DNA from: a virus
Taxonomy: Duplodnaviria; Heunggongvirae; Uroviricota; Caudoviricetes
IMG/VR virus record: IMGVR_UViG_3300028886_003642
Length of the DNA stretch: 64,000 nt
Direction: 5' to 3' (one strand)
Translations under genes and position numbers: made by a program
Shown: positions 1 to 56,966 of the stretch, piece after piece
Position numbering within the stretch: position 1 is the stretch's first letter
Layout: each line of letters starts with the position of its first letter
Notes under the pieces: model-generated
The model's input: only the letters and a program-made list of their open reading frames with translations
Told to the model about the DNA's origin: nothing
Databases searched by the model: none

Positions 1-527
1 TATCCTATCATACAAGTCAATCATTTCATCATTAAGATACCTATCATACATGTAAGTGCATGTATATCTATAACTATCCAATTCTTCTTCACTTACATAT
101 TCTATCTTTTTTGGTTTTGGCTTTTCTCGTGAAGGAATATATATTAACCCTTCTCTATTTTCTACTTCTATAGTGCCAAAATGTTTAAGTATCCATTGAG
201 CACCAAAATTTTCACCATAATATCCAAAACATCTTGATACTAATGTTTCTAGTGTGCCTTTCTCATGACAAGTAAAACAATTAAAATATACTTTGCCAGT
301 ATCTCTATCTGCTCTTGTCATTATACCTGCTGATGGTCTATTTTCATTACCATTCTTATGAAAAGGACAAGTAAATACTATATCTTGTCCTGGTGATTTT
401 GGCATCCACAGGTCTTTTAAAAGATTAATATTTTCTCTATGTAATGTTTTTTGCAGTAATAGCATTATGTCTTGGACACTAGCCATTACTGGTATATTAT
501 CTTTTCCTATGAATAACATAGGCATTT
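1..527 (-). CDS. DnaG-like DNA primase, N-terminal part (truncated by window edge)
   Basis: Minus-strand ORF starts ATG at 527 (RBS ggtaaaaggtaaATG) and runs off the window. Translation MPMLFIGKDN...FTCPFHKNGNENRPSAGI matches the CHC2 zinc-finger motif CPFH(x)E(x)TPS of bacterial primases. It lies downstream of the DnaC/DnaB-like genes. Confidence 0.5.
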
Positions 528-532
528 ACCTT

Positions 533-826
533 TTACCAAAGAGCTAGGTTTAAAACCTCTTCTAAGCCTAATTCTATTACCTTATCTCTCTTAAAAATTC
601 TGAAAACTTGCTTTGAAGGAACTACTTCAATGAATTTAGCATATTCCCCATTATGTGTAATTTCTGTATAAATGGGGAGTTGTTTTAATACATTAATAGC
701 TATTTCATCTATTTCTTCATATTCTTCACGTTCAATGTCTTCAATTTTATAACGATACTTAGTCATCACTTGGGCCATCTTGTTCTTTGCTTCTTCTAAC
801 ACGTTCATAGTAATCCTCCAATCCAA
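533..826 (-). CDS. hypothetical protein (97 aa)
   Basis: ORF in track, embedded in the replication module. No recognisable motif. Confidence 0.4.
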   Translation of the reverse strand: MDWRITMNVLEEAKNKMAQVMTKYRYKIEDIEREEYEEIDEIAINVLKQLPIYTEITHNGEYAKFIEVVPSKQVFRIFKRDKVIELGLEEVLNLALW

Positions 827-1202
827 AATTATTTACTTCTTTTAGTTCGTATACACCACAATTCTTACATATTCTTAATTTAAATGAAGTGGTTCTTGTA
901 GTACCTCTTGTAGCGTTTCCGCATAAAGCAGTTAAATCTACATCTTTAATAACTGTTTCTGCAACTTGCTTGGAATCACAAAAGGGACATCGTTTTTTAT
1001 TAGCTGGCTGTAAATCATATACATCCATTATTTTAAGCACATCTTCTAGTAGTTTTATATCTTCTAATTCTTCTGGAAACACTGCTTCTAACTTTAACCT
1101 ATTTATTAATTTAGTTAAACCTACCTTAACACCTCTAAGTCTATAACGCATAGGTTTCCATCTATGATTTAATCTTGGCATGTTATCGCCCCTAAAATAC
1201 AT
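759..1202 (-). CDS. hypothetical C4 zinc-ribbon protein (147 aa)
   Basis: CPFC...(~50 aa)...CKNC cysteine pairs. Overlaps the downstream ORF by 68 nt, so the true boundaries are uncertain. Confidence 0.4.
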   Translation of the reverse strand: MYFRGDNMPRLNHRWKPMRYRLRGVKVGLTKLINRLKLEAVFPEELEDIKLLEDVLKIMDVYDLQPANKKRCPFCDSKQVAETVIKDVDLTALCGNATRGTTRTTSFKLRICKNCGVYELKEVNNFGLEDYYERVRRSKEQDGPSDD

Positions 1203-2475
1203 TAGCTACTGTCTTTTTTACTTCTTGTTGTTGTGTTTTTAAATCTTCATCTTTTTCTATATCTTCTAAATCTGGGATATAATTAAATGTTAAGTGATCA
1301 AAATCATATGCATACAAAAGTTTTTTATCTACTAAACCATAACGATTCTTAGCTATACTTAATTGTAATGCTCCTGCTTTCTTTTGAATAGCAATAATTC
1401 TAGTAGACACTTGCGCTAAAGAATATGATCCACCAATAGACTCTGCATCCATATCCACCTGTTCATTACTCTTACTTTCATTTTGTCTACGTCTTGCTTG
1501 TACTACACCAACTACAGGTATTTTATACTGTGTAGACATTGAAAGTAACTCTGCACCAACTTCTCCTTCTATTTCAGCTTCTGTTTGCCCCTTCTTAGGA
1601 TAATCTTGACGAACATATTTAATACCATCAATAAAAACAATATCACACTTAGTCTGCTGAATTAACTGCTCAATTTTACTTACAGTTATTTTTCTATTTA
1701 AATCAGTCATATCTACAACAAATAAATGCTTATCGCTTTTATTCATATCCTCAATATATTCTTTGTAGCCATTTATTTGTAAGCCTTTTTGCATAGCCAA
1801 ATTAGAAAAATTAGTGATGTAAGTATCTATACGATATTGAATATCAAGCTTTGGCATTTCTGGACTAATAAATAAAACTCTGTCTCCATCCATACACGCT
1901 TTAGCAGCACTACTACAAAGTACTTGAGATTTTCCTGTATTAGACTTACTAAGGTAAAGAAATAAATCTCCACCTCTCTGATAACCATATACATATTCAT
2001 TTAATTCTTTAAATGGAGTTTCAATATATATCTCTGCTGGATGTTTATTTCTTTCTTCCCAAACCTCTAATCTTTCCTTATCATGCATCATATCAACACA
2101 AGTTATTTCATTAGTAAGTTTTAACTCATCTACATGAGATAAAAGATATCTAACACCATCATTAGCATCTTTTTCCATCATCTTCCCAGAAGATTGAATT
2201 AAAGTTACACAACGATTAAATAACCTAAATTCTCTAATATCATCTAATACAGATTTAAAATTAGAAGGTAAGTCTGTAAAAGAAAAATTCGGACAATTCG
2301 CAATTAACTGTTCAGCTGTTGGAGTAGATTTATATTTTTCATAATATTCTCTAACATAATTAAACGCATCTCTATGCTCAAAGAAGTAAGTTTCATCTAA
2401 AAAATTATTAGTTAATACAGAGTAATCTTTATCTTTTATTACTTTAGTTATTACTTGACTTTCTGAAAGGCTCAT
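1192..2475 (-). CDS. DnaB-family replicative DNA helicase
   Basis: Walker A LSKSNTGKSQVL, Walker B-like VFIDGIKY and the H4-like motif VVGVVQARR, typical of the DnaB C-terminal RecA-like domain. 4-nt ATGA overlap with the upstream loader gene. Confidence 0.75.
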   Translation of the reverse strand: MSLSESQVITKVIKDKDYSVLTNNFLDETYFFEHRDAFNYVREYYEKYKSTPTAEQLIANCPNFSFTDLPSNFKSVLDDIREFRLFNRCVTLIQSSGKMMEKDANDGVRYLLSHVDELKLTNEITCVDMMHDKERLEVWEERNKHPAEIYIETPFKELNEYVYGYQRGGDLFLYLSKSNTGKSQVLCSSAAKACMDGDRVLFISPEMPKLDIQYRIDTYITNFSNLAMQKGLQINGYKEYIEDMNKSDKHLFVVDMTDLNRKITVSKIEQLIQQTKCDIVFIDGIKYVRQDYPKKGQTEAEIEGEVGAELLSMSTQYKIPVVGVVQARRRQNESKSNEQVDMDAESIGGSYSLAQVSTRIIAIQKKAGALQLSIAKNRYGLVDKKLLYAYDFDHLTFNYIPDLEDIEKDEDLKTQQQEVKKTVANVF

Positions 2476-3191
2476 AAGTTACCCTTCCTTCTATATTGAT
2501 TTGTTGAAGCTCTTCTACTTTCTCCGATTATCTGCAATGAAATATCACTCAATATTCTATCAGCAGTTCTCACACCGCACTTTGACGCAAGCTCTTCTTG
2601 ATTTAAGTTACTAGTAAATATAGTTGCTTTTTTATTTCTATATCTGTTATCAATTACATCTGCAAGCACTGAATCATCATACTTACTTAAATGTATCGCT
2701 CCAATATCATCTAATATAAGAAGATTTACGTTTAATGCTTTTTGAATTACTTCCTGACGTTTTTCATTATCATCAAAATTTTTTGCATTAGCTAAAAAAC
2801 TAGGAACATATACAAAATAAGCTACATTAGGATTAAAACCATTACCTAAACTATTCATTGCTAAATACGTTAGCATAATTTTAATTGCCCACGAACTTTT
2901 ACCACTGCCTGCATTATAACCCCAAATATATAAAAACCGTCCTTCATCCACAAAGGCATCTATATCAGTCTTTATATCGTTTAAAGTATAAAATACATCT
3001 ACGTCTTCATCAGAAGGTGTTAATAATATTTTATCATAACTCTTAAACTTATCTGGAACTTCACTTGCAAAAAGCAGGTAGTCAAATTCTCTACGCATTG
3101 CACAGAATTTATTACAACCTTTAGTCTTTTCTAAGTGACAAGATCCATTAAACCAACACTTATCTTCATAATGATACTCATACTCATTCAC
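2472..3191 (-). CDS. DnaC/IstB-like AAA+ helicase loader
   Basis: Walker A GYNAGSGKSSWA, Walker B LLILDDIG and sensor TIFTSN. N-terminal Cys cluster. Translationally coupled to the DnaB-like gene. Confidence 0.7.
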   Translation of the reverse strand: MNEYEYHYEDKCWFNGSCHLEKTKGCNKFCAMRREFDYLLFASEVPDKFKSYDKILLTPSDEDVDVFYTLNDIKTDIDAFVDEGRFLYIWGYNAGSGKSSWAIKIMLTYLAMNSLGNGFNPNVAYFVYVPSFLANAKNFDDNEKRQEVIQKALNVNLLILDDIGAIHLSKYDDSVLADVIDNRYRNKKATIFTSNLNQEELASKCGVRTADRILSDISLQIIGESRRASTNQYRRKGNL

Positions 3192-3192
3192 T

Positions 3193-3399
3193 TTACCACC
3201 CCCTCCTTTTCTCCCAACTATAACATCTTTTAAAATCTTTTTCTAAATTACAAGTACGAGTAAAGCTATTAAAATACTTACAAGAACTACATTTTGATTG
3301 CCTATAGCTTAATCTAACCACATTATTATTCTTACCTTCTTGATAGGTTTGAAAAAGCATAAGAACAATTAGTATCCAACAAGACATTATAAGCCACAT
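3193..3399 (-). CDS. small hydrophobic protein (68 aa)
   Basis: ORF with an N-terminal hydrophobic segment MWLIMSCWILIVLMLF, directly downstream of the consensus promoter at 3420-3455. Confidence 0.35.
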   Translation of the reverse strand: MWLIMSCWILIVLMLFQTYQEGKNNNVVRLSYRQSKCSSCKYFNSFTRTCNLEKDFKRCYSWEKRRGW

Positions 3400-3419
3400 C
3401 TATCTATCCCCTTTCTGCA

Positions 3420-3455
3420 CATATTATCATAGCACAAAAAAGAGAAAATGTCAAG
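3420..3455 (-). promoter_or_regulatory. sigma70-type promoter (-35 TTGACA at 3449-3454, 17-bp spacer, -10 TATGAT at 3426-3431)
   Basis: Minus-strand reading ccccTTGACAttttctcttttttgtgcTATGATaatat, upstream of the ORF that starts at 3399. Confidence 0.55.
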
Positions 3456-3472
3456 GGGAAATTGCTTTCCCC
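3455..3472 (-). terminator. rho-independent terminator-like hairpin (GGGGAAA/TTTCCCC) followed by a T-run on the minus strand
   Basis: ggggaaattgctttcccc inverted repeat. On the minus strand a T-rich run (ttttctctttttt) follows it. Confidence 0.45.
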
Positions 3473-3483
3473 TTACAAAAATA

Positions 3484-3657
3484 TTTAGATAATTCTAACA
3501 AGGTCAATATCAATATCTACATCTGATAGCTGATAATCTAAATCACCAATATCTAAATTTGCTTCAATTTCTTCATAGATTTCTTCTTCTGTAGTATCAT
3601 CTGGAACTACTATAGTTACTTTAGCTTTACCATTTACATAGCAATTTGCTGTTACTT
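3484..3657 (-). CDS. small acidic protein (~58 aa), not in ORF track (<60 aa)
   Basis: Manual translation MKEVTANCYVNGKAKVTIVVPDDTTEEEIYEEIEANLDIGDLDYQLSDVDIDIDLVRII with RBS AAGGAGAG 6 nt upstream. Confidence 0.35.
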
Positions 3658-3660
3658 CTT

Positions 3661-4305
3661 TCATTTTACTCTCCTTATATATTCTGGATATACTTTACTA
3701 GCACTAACTTTTTTACCTGCCTCATCTACTAATACTTTCTTACCACTAGGAGTTTTTACTTCGTAATATTTAGGTAAAGGTTCTTTACCTTGTTCTCGCA
3801 TGAAGTCATCAAATATATCTGTGCCATTTTGTTGTCTATATAGATTAGACATAGCACACATTATATTTACGTTAAAATTTAATATATCACTATTATCATA
3901 GCCCCAAAGAACTTCTTCTATGTTATCTTCTCCGATTGCAGTAAACTCGTCCATGGACGTAAATTTTTCAACAGTACTAAAATAATCTATACACTCATAT
4001 TTCTTGCCATCATATACTTTATTAGGAATAAATGTAATTAAAAATTCTTTTGGAGTTAACCTAGCTAAAAGTTGTGTTGTTTCTGTACCTGCCTGAAATA
4101 TTAAATAACTATTATCTTCTAACTTACAAATACAATTAAAATCTTTAACTAAATATCTACAAAGACTCATATATTGATATCTATCATATGGGTCTAGATT
4201 TAATAAAATATTATCTATTATTGACTTATATTTCTCATGCCACCATTCAGTAGTTTTCTTATTACCATCAATTACTTTAAAATTAGTAGATGCATCCATC
4301 GTCAT
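3661..4305 (-). CDS. hypothetical protein (214 aa)
   Basis: Long minus-strand ORF. No recognisable motif. Confidence 0.5.
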   Translation of the reverse strand: MTMDASTNFKVIDGNKKTTEWWHEKYKSIIDNILLNLDPYDRYQYMSLCRYLVKDFNCICKLEDNSYLIFQAGTETTQLLARLTPKEFLITFIPNKVYDGKKYECIDYFSTVEKFTSMDEFTAIGEDNIEEVLWGYDNSDILNFNVNIMCAMSNLYRQQNGTDIFDDFMREQGKEPLPKYYEVKTPSGKKVLVDEAGKKVSASKVYPEYIRRVK

Positions 4306-4800: not shown

Positions 4801-5143
4801 ACTTCTTAATTTCTACAGACTCATCCCCATAATTATATAATGCTACTAAAAGATTGCCATCGTTTTGGATATTGCTATAATAAGAACTATCTATAATTCC
4901 TGTAATATTAGCAAGCATTAAATGTTTTTTAATTCCTATAGAGCTACGCACATGAATAGCCAAATACTCATTACTAGGCATATATGCTTTTACATCTGTC
5001 TTAAATACATGCATAGTATTAGGTGCTATAATAGCATCTTCATTACTATAAATATCATATCCTGCTGATCTTAAATCAGACCTTGTTGGTAATTTTACAT
5101 CTTTACTAGCATCCTTTACTCTCTCAAACCCTCTGTACCGCAA
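4697..5143 (-). CDS. dut: dUTP diphosphatase (trimeric dUTPase)
   Basis: Five conserved dUTPase motifs are present: AGYD, RSSIG(IKK), GIIDSSYY, YDRIAQGIF, and the C-terminal RTGGVGSSGK (motif 5, RxxGxGSxG). Confidence 0.8.
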   Translation of the reverse strand: MRYRGFERVKDASKDVKLPTRSDLRSAGYDIYSNEDAIIAPNTMHVFKTDVKAYMPSNEYLAIHVRSSIGIKKHLMLANITGIIDSSYYSNIQNDGNLLVALYNYGDESVEIKKYDRIAQGIFSSYYITDDDKPLSDIRTGGVGSSGK

Positions 5144-5331
5144 AATTCTTCCTCCTTTGGATCAATCTTCTTCATTAAACTAGTTGCAACTTCAAGTTTT
5201 TTCATAGCTACTGATACTTCCAAAATTGCAACATCAACATATTCCTTATCAACATAATTAAGATGATTTTCTGCAACCTCCAAGTCAGAAATTGCTTCAT
5301 CAATCAGTTTCTTTACTTCTTCCTTGCTCAT
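5116..5331 (-). CDS. hypothetical coiled-coil protein (71 aa)
   Basis: ORF in track. Confidence 0.35.
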   Translation of the reverse strand: MSKEEVKKLIDEAISDLEVAENHLNYVDKEYVDVAILEVSVAMKKLEVATSLMKKIDPKEEEFCGTEGLRE

Positions 5332-5675
5332 TAGAAAACCAAATCCTTTCTTATTTTACTTTCATCTTGCTTTTTCCTAGTTACAGACTCTTGTGGTCTA
5401 TTATTATTTTGTTCATATGCCATCTGCCTATATCCACACAATACAGATCTATGAACCATTTGAACTCTTTCTATTTTAGGTATTTTTTCTAAGAGTTCAC
5501 ATTGAGCTATCCAGCTTATTTTAGTTGGATAGAATCGTTTTTGTCTACATACTTTTAGAAAATCTTTAATCTCTTTCATTAAAGCACTATCATCTCCAAA
5601 CTTAGATTCAGCAATTTCTAAAAGCGTTAGGTTTTTCTTAGGCTTCTCCTGTTTAGGGATATTAAATAGACCCAT
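5331..5675 (-). CDS. hypothetical protein (114 aa)
   Basis: First ORF after the consensus promoter at 5700-5732. Confidence 0.45.
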   Translation of the reverse strand: MGLFNIPKQEKPKKNLTLLEIAESKFGDDSALMKEIKDFLKVCRQKRFYPTKISWIAQCELLEKIPKIERVQMVHRSVLCGYRQMAYEQNNNRPQESVTRKKQDESKIRKDLVF

Positions 5676-5699
5676 ATTTGCTCCTCCTCAATTTCTATA

Positions 5700-5732
5700 C
5701 ATAGTATATCACACTTCTAAGGGTTTGTCAAG
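5700..5732 (-). promoter_or_regulatory. sigma70-type promoter (-35 TTGACA at 5726-5731, 17 bp, -10 TATACT at 5703-5708)
   Basis: Minus-strand reading cttcTTGACAaacccttagaagtgtgaTATACTatg. Confidence 0.55.
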
Positions 5733-5772
5733 AAGAAAAATAAAAAAGGACAGGAAAATTTTCTCCTGTCCT
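5733..5772 (-). terminator. rho-independent terminator (GGACAGGA...TCCTGTCC stem plus T-run)
   Basis: Inverted repeat at 5747-5754 and 5764-5771. On the minus strand it is followed by TTTTTTATTTTTCTTCTT. Lies just downstream of the ORF ending at 5783. Confidence 0.6.
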
Positions 5773-5782
5773 ATCCTCTAAT

Positions 5783-6433
5783 TTAATCCTTCTTATATAC
5801 ATTATTGCCTATTGGTTTTGGTGGAGTTGTGAGTGCTTTTATAGGCTCCCAACCAAAATCATTTATACGACTAATAAAAGTTTGATAAGCTACCTTTCCG
5901 CATTCTCGCCACCACTCTTTAGCAGTTTTTGTAATACCGTCTATAGTTATATAGTGATTTCTTCTTGTATTATTTCCCTGCTTTAAATGTGTAGTCCACC
6001 TACAATTTTCTTTACAATAATTCCCATCTACATCAATCCTGTCTAACGTAGTCTCCTTCTCACCAAATTCTTCTACATGTACTTGATAACTTTCATACAT
6101 ATCAGACATAAATTCTTCAAATGTATTCCACTCAACTTTTATACCTCGTCCACCGTAATTTTCATACCCAATACATTTAGGAGAAGTACAACGTCTTTTT
6201 GCATCATGATAAATATGATAAAATCTAGTACCTGTCATTCCATGTGTAGATGTATAACCACTATGCTTTAAACATCCACAAGACTTTACCATACCACTAC
6301 TTAAATGGCTATAGCTAACAGTCTTAAATCCTCCACATTCACACTCACAAATCATTTTTGTACGTTCACCCTTTTTATACCTAACACCTATAATAGTAAG
6401 CTTACCAATTCTTTCTCCAATATGGTAATTCAT
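5783..6433 (-). CDS. Cys-rich HNH-like endonuclease-family protein (paralog of 17401..18423)
   Basis: N-terminal GKLTIIG...CECECGG...SCGCLKH Cys module. C-terminal RFYHIYHDAKRRC...YGGRGIKV...LDRIDVDGNYCKENCRWTT resembles a degenerate HNH motif (D-x-I-D...N...N-C/L-R-W-T). Confidence 0.5.
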   Translation of the reverse strand: MNYHIGERIGKLTIIGVRYKKGERTKMICECECGGFKTVSYSHLSSGMVKSCGCLKHSGYTSTHGMTGTRFYHIYHDAKRRCTSPKCIGYENYGGRGIKVEWNTFEEFMSDMYESYQVHVEEFGEKETTLDRIDVDGNYCKENCRWTTHLKQGNNTRRNHYITIDGITKTAKEWWRECGKVAYQTFISRINDFGWEPIKALTTPPKPIGNNVYKKD

Positions 6434-6463
6434 ACTAACATTGCTAATAAATATCGCCTCACT

Positions 6464-6889
6464 TTAAATAGGATTATCATTCATCAACCTTTCTGCTAGA
6501 GAATTGCTAACCCATTTACCAATACGTTGTTTAAGGGCATCTACATCTGCAAGTTGCTTTTCAGCCTGTGTTAAATTCACATAACCATTAAAAGAAATAT
6601 TATTACCTGCTACATTAAAGATAAGTGTATCTTCTACTAATCCATCTGGATTATAAGCAAAGATATCAAATACTGGCCCTTGTGGTTTAATATTACCACG
6701 AATACGTACAATAGAAAGTGGTTCAATGTAATCTTGGCTTACTTCTACTTCTTCGACATTAATTGTGTCATATTCACCAGTTTTAATGAGGTTTGCTTTA
6801 AGTGTACCTGCATTATCCTCTTGATCACAAGCAGAAATAATCTGACCATTTCTACCATTTTTTAATAAATATACATACATGTTTATCAT
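6464..6889 (-). CDS. hypothetical protein, tandem paralog A (141 aa)
   Basis: Shares clear similarity with the adjacent 6907..7506 product, e.g. ...NGYVNLTQAEKQ...ERLMNDNP versus ...VGYAKLTEAEIS...ERLVNDNP. Confidence 0.5.
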   Translation of the reverse strand: MINMYVYLLKNGRNGQIISACDQEDNAGTLKANLIKTGEYDTINVEEVEVSQDYIEPLSIVRIRGNIKPQGPVFDIFAYNPDGLVEDTLIFNVAGNNISFNGYVNLTQAEKQLADVDALKQRIGKWVSNSLAERLMNDNPI

Positions 6890-7509: not shown

Positions 7510-8004
7510 TCATCCCTCCAAATTTAATAAAACAACTTTATTATTATCTAAAGACGCTTTTACGTCTATTATTCTTTGATTTGATGATCCTTTAAAAGCT
7601 AATGTTATATCACGATTATTTAATTCAAATTCCCCATCCACTAATACATCTATACAGGATAAATCAATTCCGTCTAGTTCTTCCCAAGTATACCCAGTAT
7701 AACACCAAATATTTTTATGAGGCAATTCTTCTTTTATCCTTTTTGCAAATTTTAGTATATCATTTCTATTACTAAAAGCCAAAGGATCTCCACCACTAAA
7801 TGTTATACCATCTACTTCTGGTTTTGCAAGGTACTTCAAAATTTTATCTTCGGTTTCTTTTGTGAATATATTACCACAATTAAAATCCCATGAATTACTA
7901 TTATGACAACCTAAACAACAATGATTACAACCACTAACAAATAGCACACAACGAATACCCATACCGTTATTAATGGAAGCCTTATCTATTTCTAAATATC
8001 TCAA
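7510..8004 (-). CDS. nrdG: anaerobic ribonucleoside-triphosphate reductase activating protein (radical SAM)
   Basis: CVLFVSGCNHCCLGCHN matches the NrdG CxxxCxxC cluster region. 164 aa. Translationally coupled to nrdD (ATGA overlap at 8001-8004). Confidence 0.8.
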   Translation of the reverse strand: MRYLEIDKASINNGMGIRCVLFVSGCNHCCLGCHNSNSWDFNCGNIFTKETEDKILKYLAKPEVDGITFSGGDPLAFSNRNDILKFAKRIKEELPHKNIWCYTGYTWEELDGIDLSCIDVLVDGEFELNNRDITLAFKGSSNQRIIDVKASLDNNKVVLLNLEG

Positions 8005-10220
8005 TCCATCTCAACTCCAGTATGTTTTACTCGCATCTCTACTTCTTGCTGTTTACCTAAATTAAATGCTTTCTTATAATCTGAAGTCATATACCCTGTG
8101 ACCCTACGTAATCTTTGAATATCACTACTACCACACTTAGGACAAGTATCATTCATTTCATCACAATACCCACAATTTTGACAAGTATCATTAGGGACAT
8201 TTATAGCGAAATATGGAATATCTTTATCCATGGCATAAATAACTATCTTCTCTAAAGCGTCTATATTATGTTTAGCGGTAGCATCAAGTTCTACGTAAGT
8301 TATACAGCCAGCATTTGAATATCCTGTCAACTGTGATTCAATATCTATTTTTTCAAATACATCAACCTTTTTATATACAGGTACATGTATACTATTTGTA
8401 AAATATTTTTTATCTGATACTTTAGAAATTACTCCATACTTTTTCTTAAATTTATTCATTGCTGTATAACAAAGATTTTCAGCAGGAGAAAAATATACTC
8501 CAACATTTAATTTATGTTCTAATTTATAAGCTTTACATCTATCATAAAATAATTTCTCGATACGTTTAGCCAACTCCATACCTTCTTCTGTTGTATGGTC
8601 ACATCCAATAAGTATTTCTAAAGTTTCACTTAGCCCTAATTGACCGAGAGCCAATGTACCATGTTTCATAGCAGATCTAATATCTTTACCATCATAACCT
8701 ACCATAGTATTATTTTCCCACATAAAAGTAGCAGATGCTGGATCTTGAGAACAAATCCACTCATATCTTTCAACAAGCATCTCAATACCTTCAGATATTT
8801 TAACATCTAAGTATTCCATAAATTTTTCCACTAAATCATCATTATCACTTAAAGATTCTTTAGTCTCCATAGCTAAAGTAGGAAGAATAATAGTAACTGG
8901 AGTAATATTACCTCTACCATCTTTAAGCTGACCAAGACCATTTATATCGAACCCATTATATGTGCGGCATCCCATAGTTGCCATAAATGTATTTGGATCA
9001 TTCTTATCATACCCCTCATTTACAGACCAATCTATGTTAGCATAGTTAGGATAAAGTCTTTTAGCCGTACATGTTAAAGCTAATCTAAATAAATCATAAT
9101 TAGGATCTCCTTTATGTTTATTTATTCCTTCCCCAACCTGGAAAATGACGCAGGGAAACACAGAAGTTTTGTGTAATCTCCCCACACCTCTGATACTTCC
9201 TTCAAGCAATGCCCTAATAACAAGTCTTCCCTCAATACTAGTACATGTGCCAAAATTAATTGAAGAAAATGGTAACTGATTGCCAGAGCGACTTTGTAAA
9301 GAATTTAAATTATGGTATAATCCCTCAACTGCCTGTTCTGTTTCTTTTATCGTCATATCCATCGCATATTTATACACTTTAGGTATCTTTTTATACCAAT
9401 TATCATCAATAGATATATCAACTACATTTGCTCCACAAGGTTCTTTATATACAATAACCAAATCATCTGCTTCTTCAATATATTTTAATCCATCACAAAA
9501 ATGCTTATTAAAGGACTTTCTTACATAAGGAATCATAGTCCAATCAACATGTGTTGCAGCAACTCCACCAAATTGAGCAAGACTTTGAAGCTGAAAAATA
9601 ACTGCAACTAACTGCATAGCAGTATTTATAGAATTGGCAGGTCTAATATCTACTTGTCTAGTATTAAAACCATACATAAGTAAATGATCTAAAGGACAAG
9701 ATAAACAATTATGAAGCCCAAGCGCATAACTATCAAGATCGTGTATATAAATTTCGTTATTTAGATGATTATCTCTTGCCATTTTAGACATACAGTAATT
9801 TAAAGCGTAGTCCTTTAAAAGTTCATTGGTCATTTCACCTTTACGACCACCAAAAGATCTTTCATCCACATTAGCATTTTGGTTTTGAACATTTTTTGCA
9901 AATAATTTTTCGTCTACTATATCTAATAGTTGTGCATATTTTTCTCTTGCTACATCATGCAAATGTCTATAAGAAATATAACTTCTTGCTACATCATAAA
10001 AGTGAGAGTGCATCAACTCATTTTCTATAGCAGTTTGTATATCATGAACAGAAATATCTGATAATTTTCTCAATTTTTTTGTAACTTTCTGTACCACAGA
10101 ATTTATATCTGAATAAGATAAATCCCCTGCTTTTTGTACTGCCTTGTATATCTTTTCCGCATTAAAATCCTGTAAGCTCCCATCTCTTTTTCTAACCTTT
10201 ACCACATAACTCACCCTCAC
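8001..10220 (-). CDS. nrdD: anaerobic ribonucleoside-triphosphate reductase (class III RNR)
   Basis: N-terminal ATP-cone. C-terminal CxxC...CxxC zinc site (CQNCGYCDE...CPKCGS). Glycyl-radical motif RVTGYM near the C-terminus. 739 aa. Confidence 0.85.
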   Translation of the reverse strand: MRVSYVVKVRKRDGSLQDFNAEKIYKAVQKAGDLSYSDINSVVQKVTKKLRKLSDISVHDIQTAIENELMHSHFYDVARSYISYRHLHDVAREKYAQLLDIVDEKLFAKNVQNQNANVDERSFGGRKGEMTNELLKDYALNYCMSKMARDNHLNNEIYIHDLDSYALGLHNCLSCPLDHLLMYGFNTRQVDIRPANSINTAMQLVAVIFQLQSLAQFGGVAATHVDWTMIPYVRKSFNKHFCDGLKYIEEADDLVIVYKEPCGANVVDISIDDNWYKKIPKVYKYAMDMTIKETEQAVEGLYHNLNSLQSRSGNQLPFSSINFGTCTSIEGRLVIRALLEGSIRGVGRLHKTSVFPCVIFQVGEGINKHKGDPNYDLFRLALTCTAKRLYPNYANIDWSVNEGYDKNDPNTFMATMGCRTYNGFDINGLGQLKDGRGNITPVTIILPTLAMETKESLSDNDDLVEKFMEYLDVKISEGIEMLVERYEWICSQDPASATFMWENNTMVGYDGKDIRSAMKHGTLALGQLGLSETLEILIGCDHTTEEGMELAKRIEKLFYDRCKAYKLEHKLNVGVYFSPAENLCYTAMNKFKKKYGVISKVSDKKYFTNSIHVPVYKKVDVFEKIDIESQLTGYSNAGCITYVELDATAKHNIDALEKIVIYAMDKDIPYFAINVPNDTCQNCGYCDEMNDTCPKCGSSDIQRLRRVTGYMTSDYKKAFNLGKQQEVEMRVKHTGVEMD

Positions 10221-10225
10221 TTTTT

Positions 10226-10253
10226 ACATAAAACAAAAAGCAAGACATCTTGC
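10226..10253 (-). promoter_or_regulatory. leader hairpin plus U-tract between the nrdD promoter and RBS (possible attenuator)
   Basis: GCAAGAcatcTTGC stem at 10240-10253, followed on the minus strand by TTTTTGTTTT, within the ~55-nt nrdD leader. Confidence 0.3.
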
Positions 10254-10274
10254 CTTGCATATTTGTTCTCTAAT

Positions 10275-10308
10275 TATATTATACCATAAATTTATTTATT
10301 TGTCAATC
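10275..10308 (-). promoter_or_regulatory. sigma70-type promoter for nrdDG (-35 TTGACA at 10301-10306, 17 bp, extended -10 TGGTATAAT at 10278-10286)
   Basis: Minus-strand reading gattgacaaataaataaatttaTGGTATAATataatt. Confidence 0.6.
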
Positions 10309-10518
10309 CTCATTTGGAGTTAATGACTTAACAGTTTCTTCGGCCTGATCATCCACTAAAGCATTTGCTCTTTCATAAAGACTAGCAATATAGTCATCTA
10401 CATCTTCATCTTTAAGATCTTCAACATTAGCATCATAGCCAACCTCAAATTTATAGAATTCATCCTTAATTTTCATAGTCCTAGAACTAACACAATGTAT
10501 AGAATTTACTTTTGGCAA
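10303..10518 (-). CDS. hypothetical acidic protein (71 aa), TTG start
   Basis: RBS GGAAGGTGGA lies 5 nt before TTG. Confidence 0.4.
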   Translation of the reverse strand: MPKVNSIHCVSSRTMKIKDEFYKFEVGYDANVEDLKDEDVDDYIASLYERANALVDDQAEETVKSLTPNED

Positions 10519-10689
10519 TTAATCCACCTTCCTATCCAAATATACAATTATTAAATTAAGTATAAATATTGATAATACAAAATCTATTATAGTACCAACA
10601 ACAGCACAAAAAAGATTACCGCTAAAATATGTTTCTACTAGCCAAAGAGTAGACGTTGTAATTGTTGCTACTACTAATGCTATTACTGA

Positions 10690-10960
10690 AAATATTGAAC
10701 ACTCCCACCACCTATAGAGGTGGGGGATTCCTGATTCATCGACTAATGCGCCAAAACCTTAGTTTCAGTGTCTTACATAATCTCCAAAGGCGTAGAGGTT
10801 ATTTCTAACCTCAGTTCCCGTATGACCTACGGTACTATTTTTCTTATGCTATATCTTTTGCTTTTGCTAAAATATTTATTGCCGCATTTCTATCTCTATC
10901 ATGATGCGCTCCACATACAGGACATACCCAATCTCGCACAAGTAAATTCTTTACTAGTGG
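10690..10960 (-). ncRNA. candidate TnpB-associated ωRNA (reRNA) region, estimated to span the tnpB 3' end and the right-end hairpin
   Basis: In IS200/605 the ωRNA overlaps the tnpB 3' end and extends past the RE. The flank has GC-enriched stems: gaggttatttctaacctc (10795-10812), cccgtatgacctacgg (10817-10832) and cccacc-acctatagag-gtggg (10704-10726). The 5' limit inside tnpB is a guess. Confidence 0.35.
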
Positions 10961-11962
10961 ATTTTTATATCCACATTCATAACAAGTTTGACTTGATGGG
11001 TAGAATGTAGGTATTTTTACTACTACACCGCCATGTTCTTTTGCTTTATATTCTAATTTAATAAAGAACTTACCCCATGCTACATCACTTATTGCTTTTG
11101 CTAACTTGTGATTCTTTAACATGCCTTTGATGTTTAACTTCTCAATAGCTATAAAAGCATTGTCTTCTGTTAAGTGATAAGTTAATTTATGCTGAAAATC
11201 ATCTCGTACATTCTTTATTTTTTCATGAATACGAGCAACTTTTATCCTTTGCTTTTCATATTGTGCTGAACCCTTTTTCTTACGAACTAATTTTCTTTGA
11301 GCACGAGCTAATTTCTTTGCAAATTTAGCAAGTATTTTTGGATTCTTTACCACATTACCATTAGTATCTGCATAAAAATCTTTTACTCCTACATCAATAC
11401 CTATTTCATGTCCACTATTAGAAAGCAATTCTGTTTCATATTTTACACAAATAGACACATAATATTTATTAGATGCTGTGCAAGTAACTGTTGCATTTAC
11501 AATTTTTCCTACCAAATCACGAGAAAGTTTGATTTTCACTTTCCCAATCTTTGGTAGTTGAATTGTATTACCTACTAATTTAATATTATTACTTACACAC
11601 TGACTTCTATATTTCTGACAATATGCATGTTTAGACTTAAACTTAGGATACTTAGATATCTTTTTAAAGAATCTATCGTATGCTACTTGTAAATCTCGAA
11701 GGGAATTTTGAAGTGCCGTACTATCAACTTCATTAAGCCAGCTATACTCATCATACTTTTTAAGGTCTGTAAGCATAGCATTTGTAGCACTATAATTAAC
11801 ACTTTTATGATTGAATTTCCATTCATCTCTACGAACCTGTAGAAAATGATTGTAAATAAACCGCTTACAACCAAGAGTTTTATTTATCAATATCCTTTGC
11901 TCTTTTGTAGGATAAATCCTATACTCCATGCCACGAGTAATTTCTACTATCAAAATTCTCAC
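10844..11962 (-). CDS. tnpB: TnpB (IS605 OrfB family RNA-guided endonuclease)
   Basis: N-terminal YRIYPTKEQ motif. RuvC-I GIDVGVKDF, RuvC-II IAIEKLNIKGM, and zinc finger CYECGYK...CPVCGAHHDRDRNAAINI containing RuvC-III. The true start is probably TTG/ATG a few codons inside the listed ORF, after RBS AGGAGGTG. Confidence 0.85.
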   Translation of the reverse strand: MRILIVEITRGMEYRIYPTKEQRILINKTLGCKRFIYNHFLQVRRDEWKFNHKSVNYSATNAMLTDLKKYDEYSWLNEVDSTALQNSLRDLQVAYDRFFKKISKYPKFKSKHAYCQKYRSQCVSNNIKLVGNTIQLPKIGKVKIKLSRDLVGKIVNATVTCTASNKYYVSICVKYETELLSNSGHEIGIDVGVKDFYADTNGNVVKNPKILAKFAKKLARAQRKLVRKKKGSAQYEKQRIKVARIHEKIKNVRDDFQHKLTYHLTEDNAFIAIEKLNIKGMLKNHKLAKAISDVAWGKFFIKLEYKAKEHGGVVVKIPTFYPSSQTCYECGYKNPLVKNLLVRDWVCPVCGAHHDRDRNAAINILAKAKDIA

Positions 11963-12130
11963 CTCCTAATTATATTGTAACATATGTAAGAAATAATTGC
12001 AAGTAGTTTGTGGCAATTCATCTCCACCCTTCGCTTCGCTTAGAGGATGAAGGCTTCTTGCCACACTCTGCTAAAACTACTTGTCCAAGGACTTTAAGCA
12101 TTTTTAATGTTTCTTTATAGGCATCTTTTA

Positions 12131-12478
12131 TCATTTTTTAACCTTCACAAACTTGACAGCCATAGTCTTTTTCTCAATAACACAATCTGCAAATTCAGCA
12201 CCATCAATTTCACCTGTAGCAATAGAATCTTCCAAAGCTTCTTCATTTACTACCTCCTTCAGTAACCATTTTGCATTTAGCTTTTTAACTACTTCTAAAG
12301 TTTTTTCTGGGTCTAATTTTTGTGATACTCTTTCTTCTACAATAGCTCTATATTCATTTCCTTCATATGAACCTACACCTTGAGATTTTACTTCTGCCTT
12401 TAGCTTATCTACTTCTTTCTTTAAAGCTGTCAACTCGGCATTCTTAATGGCAAGCAAATCAATTTTATTTTCTGACAT
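12131..12478 (-). CDS. hypothetical coiled-coil protein (115 aa)
   Basis: ORF with RBS AAGGAG. Confidence 0.4.
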   Translation of the reverse strand: MSENKIDLLAIKNAELTALKKEVDKLKAEVKSQGVGSYEGNEYRAIVEERVSQKLDPEKTLEVVKKLNAKWLLKEVVNEEALEDSIATGEIDGAEFADCVIEKKTMAVKFVKVKK

Positions 12479-12586
12479 ATATAGTGTACTCCTTAAAATA
12501 ACATATTAATTAGACATGGAATAATTCGATAAAGCAATAATATACTGAAAATTCCTAAGATAGCTATGACAAGCATAGCCATAAAC

Positions 12587-13069
12587 CTATACAATTTCAT
12601 ATTCATTATCTTTTAGCTGTTCCTCTACTGATTTTTCATCTGAACTATATTTAAGTTTATACACTGGATACTTATCTGGTGGCATGTATGGAAATTCTAC
12701 TGGAACTCTTGATTCTCTACAGGTAAATTTAACCCCATCTGGTTCAGCAAAAATTCTACCTTCTACATCATAACATTCTCCAGTTTCTTTATTTTTGAAT
12801 ACTGCTGAATATCTTTTATTTTGCCGTGTATTGCCATCAGGATCTAATATATCTGACCACTCATCCTCTTCTCCAGTTAATGGAGTTAAAGGTTTCCAAC
12901 TCCAAAGCCTATCTACAAGTGTAATTACAATAGAAGCTGACATATTAGTATGTCCTTGATCTACAAGTGTTTTTATAACCTCTAATACAGCTTTGTTCAT
13001 ATTATCGTCATAGAAATCAAAGTTATATCTTTTAAGTTCTTCTTCTGCCCAAGTTAACATATCTGACAT
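12587..13069 (-). CDS. hypothetical protein (160 aa)
   Basis: ORF in track. Confidence 0.45.
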   Translation of the reverse strand: MSDMLTWAEEELKRYNFDFYDDNMNKAVLEVIKTLVDQGHTNMSASIVITLVDRLWSWKPLTPLTGEEDEWSDILDPDGNTRQNKRYSAVFKNKETGECYDVEGRIFAEPDGVKFTCRESRVPVEFPYMPPDKYPVYKLKYSSDEKSVEEQLKDNEYEIV

Positions 13070-13079
13070 AATATATACC

Positions 13080-13979
13080 TCATTTTAAGAAATCAGCGTT
13101 CAAAATAAAACTATTATTTCCTGCACCAATCTTAGGAGTTTCGCCATTCCATTTTTCTATTGCTCTTTGACGTAATACATTTTCAGTTAAAGATTCTTGC
13201 AATTTAGCGTTAGCTTGTGCTTGACCTTCAGCTTCAATAATAGCAGCATCTGCCTTACCTTTAGCAGTAACTCTAGCTTTTTCAGCTTCAACTTCAGCTT
13301 GTTCTTTTTCAATACGAACACGTTGGAGTTCATTTTGTGCATTCACAACATTTTGAATTGCAGTTGCAGTAGCTTCATCAGGAACTACATCAGATAAGTT
13401 AAAAGTTTCAATTACAATGCCATATTCCTCTAAATCATTTCTAAACGCTTCAAATATCTTTTGATTAATCTCTGGGCGTTTATCTCCTACAAGTTCCATC
13501 AGACTATACTGGCTAGTTATATTATTAAGTGCTTCATACATAGCATTTTTCATGTAGCCATTTTGAATTGACTCAATATTTTGCCCTCTGAACTTTGCAT
13601 AAACAGCAGGTAGTTTTTCTACATCCATATGATAAGCATAAGTAACAGATGTGTTTACCTGCTTACCATCTTTAGTATTAACATTTACACTCTTATCTAC
13701 CTTCTTATCATCCTTATCACTACCGTCTACAGTATTTTTAGTATAATATACTGTTTCAGTAGAGATAGGATATTCACTCACATGTTTCCATGGAGCTACA
13801 ATATGAAATCCTTGTGACAAAGTTTCGTTTTCAATACCACCGTCCATGTTGTAGACTACACCAGCATATCCAGGGCCAATTCTATTTACACAAGTAAACA
13901 TGCCTACTGTACATACTGCCATACCAACAAAAATTCCAATAGCACCAAGATTTTTAATTTCCATAATGCACTCCTTCAA
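13080..13979 (-). CDS. SPFH/band-7 (stomatin/prohibitin/HflKC-like) membrane protein
   Basis: N-terminal TM segment, then GYAGVVYNMDGG...FHIVAPW...(SPFH core) and a C-terminal coiled-coil typical of band-7 proteins. Confidence 0.7.
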   Translation of the reverse strand: MKECIMEIKNLGAIGIFVGMAVCTVGMFTCVNRIGPGYAGVVYNMDGGIENETLSQGFHIVAPWKHVSEYPISTETVYYTKNTVDGSDKDDKKVDKSVNVNTKDGKQVNTSVTYAYHMDVEKLPAVYAKFRGQNIESIQNGYMKNAMYEALNNITSQYSLMELVGDKRPEINQKIFEAFRNDLEEYGIVIETFNLSDVVPDEATATAIQNVVNAQNELQRVRIEKEQAEVEAEKARVTAKGKADAAIIEAEGQAQANAKLQESLTENVLRQRAIEKWNGETPKIGAGNNSFILNADFLK

Positions 13980-17400: not shown

Positions 17401-18423
17401 TTAAGATATTCCACTACTTATGCGGGTTCCTTTAGGAGTCTCTAATGCTTCCCTAAAAGACATTCCATTATGTAATCTGCGTCTAACCGTATGCCTACCA
17501 ATGTTATATAATTTACACCAATAAGATATAGGTTTCTTGACACCATCAAGCTCAAACATCTCTATACCATTTCTCTTTTTTGTCTTACGAGGTACTATTT
17601 CTAATGCTTCATATATATTCCAACCATCCCTAAGTCTTCTTGCCACTAAATCATATCTCTTATCATATCTTTCAGCTAAATCCCATACTAAGTCAATCTT
17701 ACCATCAAATTCTACACGTAAAGAAGTTCTTCTATTAAGTATTTGTTCATGACATGTTGCCCAACGACAGTTTTCCTTACAATAATTACCATTATAATCT
17801 ATACGGTCTAATGATGTATCATTTTCTCCATATTCATCGACATGTTCTTGATACTCATCATACATAGCATCACGAAATGCTATAAATGAATTATTCCATT
17901 CTTCACATACTTTTATTCCTCTTCCACCATAATTATGATATTCACAATTACTTTCATTATTACATCTATTTTTCATGTCTTGCCAAATTCTATAAAATCT
18001 TGTCCTAGACATATTATGAGTTATTTCTGACTCTGATACATACTGAGATTTCTTACAGCCGCACGATTTTGATATGCCATCTCTCAATGCCTGTGTAGTC
18101 AATTTCTTTCTTGTACCACAAGAACAAACTATATTCCACCAAGATGCCCTTTTCTCATATCCTGCATATGATTCAACATACCACTCACCAAAAGTCTGCC
18201 CTGTTAAATCTATAAATAAAGCTTCATGTAGTCTTTCTTTTCTCAAACATCCACATGACTGAGAAAATCCTTTCCTTAAACTATAACCATTAACTCTCAA
18301 ATGCTTTTCTGGATCACAATCACATACACAATCCCAATACCCACCACCAAGATAACTAAGTGCAGTCAATCTTCCAAATTTTTGTCCTGTAATATCTATA
18401 ACACTTTTATGCAAAAATATCAC
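17401..18423 (-). CDS. Cys-rich HNH-like endonuclease-family protein with duplicated N-terminal Cys module and C-terminal DNA-binding-like region
   Basis: Two copies of GQxFG...C.C.C...SCGC module. RFYRIWQDMKNRC...YGGRGIKVCEEW...LDRIDYNGNYCKENCRWAT is near-identical in pattern to 5783..6433. Confidence 0.5.
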   Translation of the reverse strand: MIFLHKSVIDITGQKFGRLTALSYLGGGYWDCVCDCDPEKHLRVNGYSLRKGFSQSCGCLRKERLHEALFIDLTGQTFGEWYVESYAGYEKRASWWNIVCSCGTRKKLTTQALRDGISKSCGCKKSQYVSESEITHNMSRTRFYRIWQDMKNRCNNESNCEYHNYGGRGIKVCEEWNNSFIAFRDAMYDEYQEHVDEYGENDTSLDRIDYNGNYCKENCRWATCHEQILNRRTSLRVEFDGKIDLVWDLAERYDKRYDLVARRLRDGWNIYEALEIVPRKTKKRNGIEMFELDGVKKPISYWCKLYNIGRHTVRRRLHNGMSFREALETPKGTRISSGIS

Positions 18424-19106
18424 ACCTTATTTTTAATATATTCTAACAACTTATTTATATACTCAACCAAGCTACTTCTTAGAAAGAATAGTCCCGCGAC
18501 CATAGATGTCATAGAAGCCCATTTACCTAAATCTTCCAATGAACCTAATGGGTCTAGTTTACTTCTTTCCTTTACATACCAATGTATAGATGCTGTTAGC
18601 TGTTGACCTAGTGTATATGTTAGGTTACTTGCTTGTTGTTGTACTACATCATGTACTCCATTTTTTAGTGCTGTGTTTATTACATCTTTTTGCGCATCTA
18701 TATTTTTCTCTAATTCTTTATACCACTGTTTTGCCTCATCTATATTTTTTGGCTCTACAAATGCATAAGAATCTACAATAGCTTTTGTAGTATCTGCTAT
18801 TACTGTATTTACAGTTTCTTTTACTATCTCTTTTGGTTTTTCTTTATTTTCTGTTGATAACATTACTACTTCTTTACTTATTATTTGATCTATATCTATT
18901 ATTTTTAATACAAAAGATTGTGTAGTAAAATCTTTCTTAGTTATAGTTACTGGTAATACTCCTACTTCTATTCCACTTATTGAAGTATTTCCTAAATTAT
19001 CAGTTGTTCTTTCTATTAAACCTTTACCTTCTAAATTAAATACTACTGAAGCTTCTTTAACTGGTTCTCCTGTTAAATCTTTTGTTTGTATTTTAATTTG
19101 TGCCAT
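18420..19106 (-). CDS. hypothetical protein with C-terminal hydrophobic segment (228 aa)
   Basis: ORF that starts immediately after the IscB-end hairpin. Confidence 0.45.
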   Translation of the reverse strand: MAQIKIQTKDLTGEPVKEASVVFNLEGKGLIERTTDNLGNTSISGIEVGVLPVTITKKDFTTQSFVLKIIDIDQIISKEVVMLSTENKEKPKEIVKETVNTVIADTTKAIVDSYAFVEPKNIDEAKQWYKELEKNIDAQKDVINTALKNGVHDVVQQQASNLTYTLGQQLTASIHWYVKERSKLDPLGSLEDLGKWASMTSMVAGLFFLRSSLVEYINKLLEYIKNKV

Positions 19107-29444: not shown

Positions 29445-29513
29445 TATGTTTCACCCCATATATAAATAAAAGCCCAACCAAAAGGTTAGGCTTATTTCCT
29501 GTCCTCTCTAATT

Positions 29514-29546
29514 ATATTATACCATAATTAAAACATTTTGTCAAAT
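29514..29546 (-). promoter_or_regulatory. sigma70-type promoter (-35 TTGACA at 29539-29544, 17 bp, extended -10 TGGTATAAT at 29516-29524)
   Basis: Minus-strand reading aatTTGACAaaatgttttaattaTGGTATAATataatt. Confidence 0.55.
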
Positions 29547-56584: not shown

Positions 56585-56726
56585 GTAATCATCTCCTAGA
56601 AATCTATTTTAATAACAAACCAAAGAAGTCCATACTAAAATATAGCATAGACTTCTTTGACCAGCTTTCAAAATACCTATAATACTCATATCATATGTAC
56701 TTTGAAAACTTATCTACCTTATACTT

Positions 56727-56759
56727 ATATTATACCACATATTTCTGATTTTGTCAAAT
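56727..56759 (-). promoter_or_regulatory. sigma70-type promoter, repeat copy 3 (TTGACA-17-TGTGGTATAAT)
   Basis: Third copy of the ~45-bp repeat cttatattataccaca..tttt..caaatt(t)tgtcaaatttta. -10 at 56729-56734, -35 at 56752-56757. Confidence 0.55.
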
Positions 56760-56946: not shown

Positions 56947-56966
56947 CTTCTTTCTACCTTCTACTT

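Follow-up and report, generated by a model that had tools for sequence, protein, structure and literature searches.

The 64,000-nt stretch of phage DNA analysed here (IMG/VR record IMGVR_UViG_3300028886_003642; "the window" below) very probably carries a complete, tnpA-less and non-autonomous insertion sequence (IS) of the IS200/IS605 family. The element spans 1376 bp on the minus strand, at 10695-12070. It is made up of a left end, a tnpB gene read from the same strand, and a scaffold for an OMEGA RNA, or ωRNA, that overlaps the right end; it has no further content. Our confidence is high for this identity and this architecture, and lower for two steps discussed below, the supply of the transposase TnpA in trans and a role in homing. 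Judged on its sequence, the element is an ordinary one of an already-known kind, the tnpB-only IS200/IS605 type: it displays all the sequence features by which TnpB/ωRNA units and IS200/IS605 ends are recognized, except that it does not code for TnpA. Its main interest lies in the population context, with several polymorphic TnpB and IscB insertions, and not in the element itself.

Boundaries and ends of the element

A megablast search of window positions 9800-13200 against GenBank phages gave no match. Because no isolate relative was found among these phages, IMG/VR and metagenome contigs were used for comparison. Scanning IMG/VR with the TnpB protein led to a 92-kb viral contig, of which L001, L103, L105 and L137 are pieces and whose backbone is 93-98% identical to that of the window. 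In L001, window position 12071 is fused straight to 10694, that is, the site is empty. The same site is also empty in L104, taken from a 55-kb contig, and in L107, a 1.8-kb contig, both variants of the same phage region. With a slash marking each junction, the occupied allele reads GTAGTTTTAG/CAGAGTG...GTGTTCAA/TATTTTCAG and the empty allele GTAGTTATAG/TATTTTCAG. Comparison of the two alleles reveals no target-site duplication and no terminal inverted repeats; the first bases of the element are CAGAG and the last ones GTTCAA.

The three empty sites set the first base at 12070 (boundary 12070/12071). The last base, 10695, is set by the copies of the element, since all four end in GTGTTCAA and continue into four unrelated flanks. 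One of these copies (94% identical to that of the window) is found in L001 itself, 395 bp downstream of the empty site, between a 71-aa open reading frame (ORF) and nrdD. Two more, L101 and L102 (92% and 89% identical), come from Logan assemblies and have nothing in common with the window outside the element, at either the DNA or the protein level. The four copies are mutually 88-94% identical and occupy four sites in three unrelated backbones. One IS lineage has thus made recent insertions at a minimum of four sites, spread over three unrelated backbones. An initial annotation of this DNA had already recognized the element and placed it at 10685-12085. The element stands, its coordinates have to be replaced by the exact ends given above, and related genomes show clean insertion boundaries.

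The left junction can be read in three copies, as TTTAG/C, TTTAA/C and TTTAG/C, the second being that of L001. The empty sites read TATAG/TATTTTC in L001 and L104, and TTTAG/TATTTTT in L107. The signals of the two ends are as follows.

12071..12075, minus strand: candidate target-adjacent motif (TAM) or target TTTAG, in the phage flank directly 5' of the left end (three copy junctions)
11954..12070, minus strand: left end, 117 nt (first base from the empty sites; four copies aligned)
12058-12064 with 12010-12016, minus strand: outer stem GTGGCAA with TTGCCAC (fold)
12053-12056, minus strand: proposed left guide tetranucleotide G_L, AAGC, the four bases 5' of the foot of the left imperfect palindrome
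12022-12052, minus strand: left imperfect palindrome IP_L, arms CTTCATCC and GGGTGGAG (arm pair also given as CTCCACCC and GGGTGGAG), with the loop motif GCGAAGC at 12033-12039 (fold)
11974-11982, minus strand: promoter-like extended -10 sequence TGTTACAAT (motif match)
11962-11967, minus strand: ribosome-binding site AGGAGG, upstream of the tnpB start
10695..10730, minus strand: right-end signals for a Y1 transposase (guide G_R GAAT, right palindrome IP_R, spacer and cleavage site)
10727-10730, minus strand: guide G_R, GAAT, identical to G_R of IS608
10704-10726, minus strand: IP_R, CCCCCACC-TCTATA-GGTGGTGGG, which is also the last helix of the ωRNA scaffold
10695-10698, minus strand: cleavage tetranucleotide C_R, TCAA, after the spacer AGTGT, identical to C_R of IS608

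These ends closely resemble those of IS608 from Helicobacter pylori. Both elements insert 3' of a short motif, without duplication or terminal inverted repeats, and both have subterminal imperfect hairpins at the two ends. In IS608, the left cleavage site C_L, TTAC, lies 19 nt 5' of the foot of the left hairpin and is associated with the guide G_L AAAG, and the right cleavage site C_R, TCAA, lies 10 nt 3' of the foot of the right hairpin and is associated with G_R GAAT (PMC3201880, PMC5934647). Here, the left end is laid out as TTTAG/CAGAGTGTGGCAAGAAGC/CTTCATCC-loop-GGGTGGAG, where the cut lies 18 nt 5' of the IP_L foot, and the right end as GAAT/CCCCCACC-TCTATA-GGTGGTGGG/AGTGT-TCAA/, where hairpin foot and cut are 9 nt apart. 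Thus, distances of 19 and 10 nt correspond to 18 and 9 nt. G_R and C_R, the latter being the last four bases of the element, are the same as in IS608, whereas the left target is TTAG (within TTTAG) instead of TTAC, the proposed left guide is AAGC instead of AAAG, and tnpA is missing.

By analogy with IS608, AAGC would be the left-end guide tetranucleotide. It is complementary to TTAG in the IS608 register and, with respect to IS608, the fourth position is altered on both sides with pairing kept. Relatives with 63-69% protein identity show covariation of the IP_L arms (for example CGCCGTCC with GGACGGCG, and CTCCCGCTT with AAGCGGGAG). At their putative boundaries, 15-17 nt upstream, the same relatives have a TTTAN motif whose last base fits the fourth base of the guide proposed for each of them (TTTAT with AAGA in two cases, TTTAC with AAGG).

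Taken alone, the left end of the element folds only marginally better than its shuffles (minimum free energy z = -1.87). A nested inverted repeat had been annotated at 11999-12084. Its left-end hairpins are real; its outer 10-bp arm, at 12074-12083, belongs to the phage flank and is present in no other copy. This arm, CAAGTAGTTT, is perfectly complementary over 10 nt to AAACTACTTG inside the element (12000-12009), and was considered as a target-recognition feature. We rejected this idea: the complementarity is probably due to chance, because L102 has nearly the same internal sequence next to an unrelated flank, and L001 and L101 are devoid of that segment.

TnpB and the candidate ωRNA

The protein is a canonical and apparently active TnpB. 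Its coding features, together with those of the RNA encoded downstream, are listed below (RuvC residues in the numbering of the 372-aa frame).

10844..11953, minus strand: tnpB coding sequence, 369 aa from a TTG codon at 11953, 10 nt after AGGAGG
11393-11395, minus strand: RuvC codon D190 (GIDVG), aligned to ISDra2 TnpB
11141-11143, minus strand: RuvC codon E274 (AIEKL), aligned to ISDra2 TnpB
10892-10894, minus strand: RuvC codon D357 (HDRD), aligned to ISDra2 TnpB
10695..10842, minus strand: candidate ωRNA scaffold, 148 nt, six helices (covariation); its 5' limit may reach into the 3' end of tnpB
10679..10694, minus strand: predicted 16-nt ωRNA guide TATTTTCAGTAATAGC, in the phage flank past the right end (position placed by the known architecture of TnpB ωRNAs)

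The frame is open from a GTG codon at 11962 (10844-11962, 372 aa); the length of 369 aa is that given by gene callers to the nearest database relative. Three Pfam domains score above their cutoffs, HTH_OrfB_IS605 (PF12323), OrfB_IS605 (PF01385) and Cas12f1-like_TNB (PF07282), in the order expected of a TnpB: N-terminal HTH/REC, split RuvC and zinc-ribbon target-nucleic-acid-binding domain. The NCBIfam model IS200_TnpB (NF038281) gives 475.3 bits for a cutoff of 425. Among solved structures, the best natural match is ISDra2 TnpB (8h1j, 8bf8, 8ex9/8exa; E = 1.5e-94 over residues 9-365), with whose chains the CYEC and CPVC pairs of the zinc finger (C327/C330 and C347/C350) align. The initial annotation had described a stand-alone canonical TnpB with RuvC-I, -II and -III motifs and a C-terminal zinc finger, and this description holds, the D-E-D triad and both CxxC pairs being intact. 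Indeed, none of the catalytic or zinc-binding residues is substituted in any of the four copies. The pairwise ratio of nonsynonymous to synonymous substitution rates (dN/dS) of tnpB among these copies is 0.11-0.16; purifying selection therefore maintains the function of TnpB.

Two other affiliations were examined and rejected. For an IS607-type element, the model IS607_TnpB (NF038280) gives only 173 bits (cutoff 350), and the element has no space for another gene; no search aimed at serine recombinases was made in the rest of the window. For a type V CRISPR-Cas system of the Cas12f-like kind, the V_cas_c2c8 model gives 129 bits (cutoff 350), and no repeat array is found in 9500-13500.

The nearest database relatives (63-72% identity) are likewise stand-alone and occur in phage-like, plasmid-like and chromosomal settings. 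Homologues of TnpB are found in 424 GenBank phage records, the best one being that of Enterocloster phage CB473P3 (53.7% identity), and several papers have remarked on phage-borne tnpB. TnpB in a phage is common.

Between the tnpB stop codon and the end of the element there are 149 nt. Folding of this 3' flank alone is marginally better than that of shuffled sequences (z = -1.97; single-sequence values are overall about -1.7 to -2.0), and Rfam has no family over it, the best hit, RAGATH-18, reaching 20 bits for a threshold of 44.9 and being taken as noise. As these single-sequence scores are weak, the case for structure rests on covariation. A covariance model built from the four close copies, R1, detects a homologue of this RNA at 15 further loci, in each case immediately downstream of tnpB; among these loci are the closest stand-alone relatives (L109-L112) as well as Succinivibrio genomes and other viral contigs. 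In the resulting alignment of 19 sequences, fitted to the structure of the model, 92.2% of the cells pair, vs. 34-48% in controls where partners were slid by 1-3 columns. Compensatory double changes are seen in 41 of the 47 pairs, and none of 500 shuffles reaches the observed pairing values. Given how low the slid control is and how many pair types occur, a real conserved fold is the only reasonable reading of these alignments. The annotated structured 3' flank of ~150 nt, of ωRNA or right-end element RNA (reRNA) type, is therefore recovered as 149 nt with covarying helices in 19 homologues. A prediction made on the four close copies pairs ORF-internal GAGCGC at long range with terminal GUGUUC; an alternative helix, GAAC with GUUC, has covariation support.

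In the empty alleles of L001 and L104, the TAM position is followed by the sequence of the predicted guide, TATTTTCAGTAATAGC. Within the window it is unique, with no off-target site at 0-1 mismatches. Cleavage dependent on a TAM and a guide is here predicted from the architecture of the unit, with TTTAR, at three junctions, as the candidate TAM.

Several known systems may be compared with this unit. ISDra2 TnpB, from Deinococcus radiodurans, has the same domain order, D-E-D triad and CxxC...CxxC finger; its ωRNA, too, is encoded at the 3' end and extends through the right end, and a 5-nt T-rich TAM is likewise found 5' of the left end. In contrast, ISDra2 TnpB has 408 aa with a C-terminal tail that is lacking in the 369-aa protein, and ISDra2 has its own tnpA and resides in a bacterial chromosome, whereas the present element has no tnpA and resides in a phage. 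The TAM of ISDra2, in the work of Karvelis et al. in 2021, is reportedly TTGAT, to be compared with TTTAG and TTTAA here. The tnpA-less derivatives of the family (IS1341-type) have a stand-alone tnpB, keep both ends and are presumed to be mobilized in trans. Nothing fundamental distinguishes the present element from them, except that sibling phages, by their empty and occupied alleles, document its mobility. Finally, the IStrons of Clostridia are also tnpB-only, located inside genes and provided with an ωRNA at the 3' end. An IStron was rejected here: Rfam detects no intron family (gathering thresholds over the whole window; E <= 10 in 10000-12600), the left end is no longer than 117 nt, and the interrupted ORF is left truncated instead of being restored by splicing.

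Ends, candidate TAM TTTAR, 148-nt covarying scaffold and predicted guide together delimit a natural system, which makes this compact 369-aa nuclease of the ISDra2 clade directly testable.

Mobility and persistence

The initial annotation had noted the absence of tnpA, and this is borne out. The Y1 TnpA of P0111, a 56%-identical relative called as a tnpA-tnpB fusion, was used as a tblastn query, along with a hidden Markov model made from seven TnpA sequences. All six frames of the window, L001, L101-L104, L107 and L137 were searched, and the best E value was 0.58. In addition, only 117 nt are available between the left boundary and tnpB. With the same query, tnpA is detected at six distant loci, where it lies upstream of tnpB, and relatives at ~56% identity carry a Y1 tnpA, either fused or adjacent. 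Since no TnpA is encoded, the element is a non-autonomous derivative and not a full IS605-type element.

Y1 TnpA is reduced to its first ~50 residues, upstream of tnpB or fused to it, in the Succinivibrio copies (L028 141-308, L029 741-884, L030 1332-1478; 54-56% TnpB identity) and in P0105. These stubs look like remnants of tnpA decay in the clade.

The following mechanism is proposed. TnpA acting in trans, from the host or from a co-resident element, would catalyse peel-and-paste transposition into new sites. Transcription of tnpB would start at the promoter-like site in the left end, and the 3' part of the transcript would be bound by the protein as ωRNA, with the phage flank TATTTTCAGTAATAGC as a guide of ~16 nt. 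The TnpB-ωRNA complex would then cut TTTAR followed by TATTTTCAGTAATAGC, that is, the empty allele, whether it results from excision or is brought by a co-infecting phage. Recombinational repair off the occupied copy would restore or spread the element (restorative or non-restorative homing). Restoration or spread of this kind is reported for IS605 elements in bacteria and plasmids (PMC10055086 and PMC11870625; review PMC13565253), restorative homing driven by TnpB being shown by Meers et al. (PMC10055086).

Four different sites require at least three transposition events. Because homing makes no new sites and because the four junctions are canonical, repeated peel-and-paste by TnpA in trans would account for them. 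The occupied and empty alleles in sibling phages, with the element 395 bp apart in near-identical genomes, provide clean evidence of ongoing trans-mobilization of tnpB-only elements.

Some points weigh against this picture. Mobilization in trans, although the most likely route, is what we infer from the insertion pattern, and a cognate TnpA was found in none of the searched loci. Production of the ωRNA, length of the guide and TAM are predicted from the architecture. The candidate TAM comes from three junctions, one of which, TTTAA in L001, does not fit the left-end guide rule. Fitting of the alignment to the structure of R1 somewhat inflates the pairing counts; model-fitting is not the whole effect, however, since the slid-partner control is far lower. 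As the last helix is also the DNA hairpin of the transposase, its covariation alone is no proof of a role as RNA. The ~100 nt of covarying helices that remain, upstream of the ~36 nt that a transposase would need on the precedent of IS608, fit an ωRNA scaffold, whose expression is predicted.

The strongest rival to transposition in trans is that the element persists and spreads mainly through TnpA-independent homing, a gene drive between co-infecting phages analogous to that of T4-like homing endonucleases, with transposition being negligible. We consider this rather improbable. In its favour, purifying selection acts on TnpB even though neither the four copies nor the 64 kb of phage yielded a tnpA. 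Moreover, all three empty alleles are one base off the TAM plus 16-nt guide of the window, as resistant alleles would be: L001 and L104 have TATAG for TTTAG, and in L107 target position 7 is changed from C to T. A TnpA-independent gene drive of IS605 in plasmids is reported in PMC11870625, and such a drive is proposed for phages in the review PMC13565253. However, homing is unable to create new sites, whereas four copies occupy four sites with canonical left- and right-end junctions, and the element was not found at one shared site in any two independent genomes. As for the empty alleles, one difference per 21 nt is close to what chance would give at 4-14% backbone divergence (the probability that all three differ is estimated at ~0.4), and two of the three carry one same variant and hence are not independent. 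The idea that they are escape alleles was therefore dropped, the single difference at each empty site being within the expectation from backbone divergence and not significant. Co-conversion tracts were also looked for; the identity profile of the window and L001 around the sites is uninformative, because the backbone is mosaic (70-100% per 100 nt).

Like the free-standing homing endonuclease genes seg and mob of T4-like phages, and like the plasmid IS605 gene drive (PMC11870625), the element is a selfish nuclease gene with presence/absence polymorphism, and cutting of empty alleles with subsequent copying by recombination is a possible parallel (PMC13565253). In contrast to seg and mob, which rely on recognition of the target by a protein, a guide RNA and a TAM would be used here, and the element has transposon ends and has clearly transposed to new sites.

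A broader version of this idea, which we find somewhat more doubtful, is that guide-RNA nucleases (several TnpB lineages and IscB) are the counterpart, in this uncultivated phage lineage, of T4-like homing endonucleases. They would be the main presence/absence differences between genomes and would spread by cutting empty alleles during co-infection, without a transposase of their own, and surviving TAM or seed variants would be drive-resistant. If true, this would be natural non-restorative homing (gene drive) by OMEGA systems in viruses. To our knowledge, such homing has so far only been proposed for viruses, and we know of no demonstration of phage homing by TnpB.

It is quite improbable that TnpB has been domesticated to serve the phage, for instance as an RNA-guided repressor or as a weapon against competitors, and no longer behaves as part of a transposon. 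Its place in an accessory region, beside the anti-Thoeris gene for Tad3, would suit such a role, as would the internal promoter-like TGTTACAATATAATTAG, which fits a phage-wide promoter class (7 hits vs. 1.15 expected), and the match of the guide to the intact allele of a gene in sibling phages. Against this, the nuclease triad is intact, unlike in nuclease-dead derivatives of the TldR type, and both transposon ends are conserved together with the cleavage signals. Furthermore, near-identical phages differ in whether they have the insertion, a phage gene is destroyed by it, and the same element resides in unrelated backbones.

An inert relic, that is, a dead insertion whose 3' structures are only transposase DNA hairpin and terminator, is the least probable reading of all, since the absence of tnpA, the weak single-sequence z values (-1.97 for the 3' flank, -1.87 for the left end) and the lack of an Rfam match are outweighed by a dN/dS of 0.11-0.16 with all catalytic and zinc residues kept in four copies, by ~100 nt of covarying helices beyond the ~36 nt needed by a transposase and by movement among three unrelated backbones at 88-94% identity.

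Interrupted gene, neighbourhood and other insertions

The element interrupts a small phage gene.

10519..12134, minus strand: host gene split by the insertion, a 79-aa ORF (5' part 12071-12134, 3' part 10519-10694)

This ORF is intact in L001 (2435..2674), L104 (2195..2434) and L107. Read by eye, its product appears to be a membrane protein with two hydrophobic membrane-spanning segments. The product of the window is cut to 38 aa and runs into the left end (MIKDAYKETLKMLKVLGQVVL/AECGKKPSSSKRSEGWR, followed by a stop).

Neighbouring genes are of phage type and encode tail-fibre and baseplate proteins, helicases, NrdD, NrdG, an SPFH protein and Tad3. Two ORFs upstream of the insertion, 12587-13069 on the minus strand encodes Tad3, an inhibitor of type I Thoeris (Pfam PF25185, E = 2.9e-30), and is followed by the SPFH/Band-7 protein at 13080-13979. 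As Tad3 lies beside the insertion, the TnpB hot spot is in an anti-defence/accessory region. DNA homology between the window and L001 or L104 ends at ~10128, ~90 nt into nrdD (8001-10220), and NrdD is common only up to about its first 25 residues. Hence, on this comparison, a mosaic boundary is located directly beside the insertion hot spot.

The lineage harbours six different OMEGA-type insertions within ~10 kb, unevenly distributed among sibling genomes. A second RNA-guided nuclease had been annotated ~8 kb away from tnpB, and it is confirmed as an IscB gene at 19132-20394 (RRXRR and HNH; NCBIfam guided_IscB, 382 bits) with a HEARO RNA at 20418-20643. This IscB and HEARO unit (~19114-20645, minus strand) is polymorphic for presence or absence, since L137 (3993-3998) joins 20646 to 19113 with a 6-nt overlap. 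The IscB-less sibling, the phage of L001, has a 2.2-kb insertion (L137 4459-6662, ORF 5004..6491) encoding a 495-aa distant protein of the TnpB family (NF040570, 72 bits, below the cutoff of 100). It corresponds to window position ~18648 in ORF 18420..19106 and shortens this 228-aa ORF to 170 aa.

L104 carries, at 2633-4116 (ORF 2672..4018; window ~10321-10350), a gene for a 448-aa distant TnpB-like protein at the 3' end of a 72-aa ORF, the equivalent of the 71-aa ORF of the window. Both sites of the window-type element are empty in L104. On the two sides of the 448-aa gene, the end of the 72-aa ORF is duplicated (~30 bp, diverged), and the upstream ORF therefore retains an alternative C-terminus. 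L107 has, at 364-1602 (ORF 387..1484; window ~12147-12158), a 365-aa TnpB of IS200/IS605 type with an ωRNA-like 3' flank (R1, 47.7 bits), inside the 3' end of a 115-aa ORF. Only ~36 nt separate the end of flank homology from its start codon, which is too little to accommodate a left-end hairpin. At the borders of this insertion, 12 nt from the end of the 115-aa ORF are duplicated in diverged form (TGTCAAATTTGT and TGTTAAGTTTGT). Finally, the 27-kb Logan contig of L102 has, at 1801-3065, a second and diverged TnpB 3.2 kb upstream of the window-type copy (367 aa, IS200_TnpB 460 bits), with its own ωRNA-like flank (R1, 41 bits) ending in ...GGTGGTGGGAGG..AA. With at least six OMEGA insertions, the lineage offers a test bed for homing and exclusion by RNA-guided nucleases between co-infecting phages.

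In the window, nrdD is preceded by a perfect TTGACA-17-TATAAT promoter that has a TG extension (10270-10306, minus strand) and is followed by a terminator-like hairpin at 10240-10258. In L001 (2890-2902, 4271), the element is inserted between the -35 sequence and the transcription start of the nrdD promoter. At this site L001 lacks 21 nt (TTTGTGGTATAATATAATTAG in L104), spanning exactly from TTTAA to TTAG. Two origins are suggested by this loss: a deletion of the transposase type from one target-like motif to the other, or one-sided repair after TnpB had cut at +21. A promoter-like motif, TGGTATAATATAATTAG, marks intergenic regions of the phage and has seven hits at <=2 mismatches, for 1.15 expected.

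10270-10286, minus strand: TGGTATAATATAATTAG motif site
29508-29524, minus strand: TGGTATAATATAATTAG motif site
53872-53888, minus strand: TGGTATAATATAATTAG motif site
56721-56737, minus strand: TGGTATAATATAATTAG motif site
56961-56977, minus strand: TGGTATAATATAATTAG motif site
57169-57185, minus strand: TGGTATAATATAATTAG motif site
11966-11982, minus strand: TGGTATAATATAATTAG motif site, inside the element

The nrdD promoter is of this class, and the left end of the element contains a near-identical version of the motif just before the ribosome-binding site of tnpB. The motif ends in TTAG, which is the predicted insertion target.

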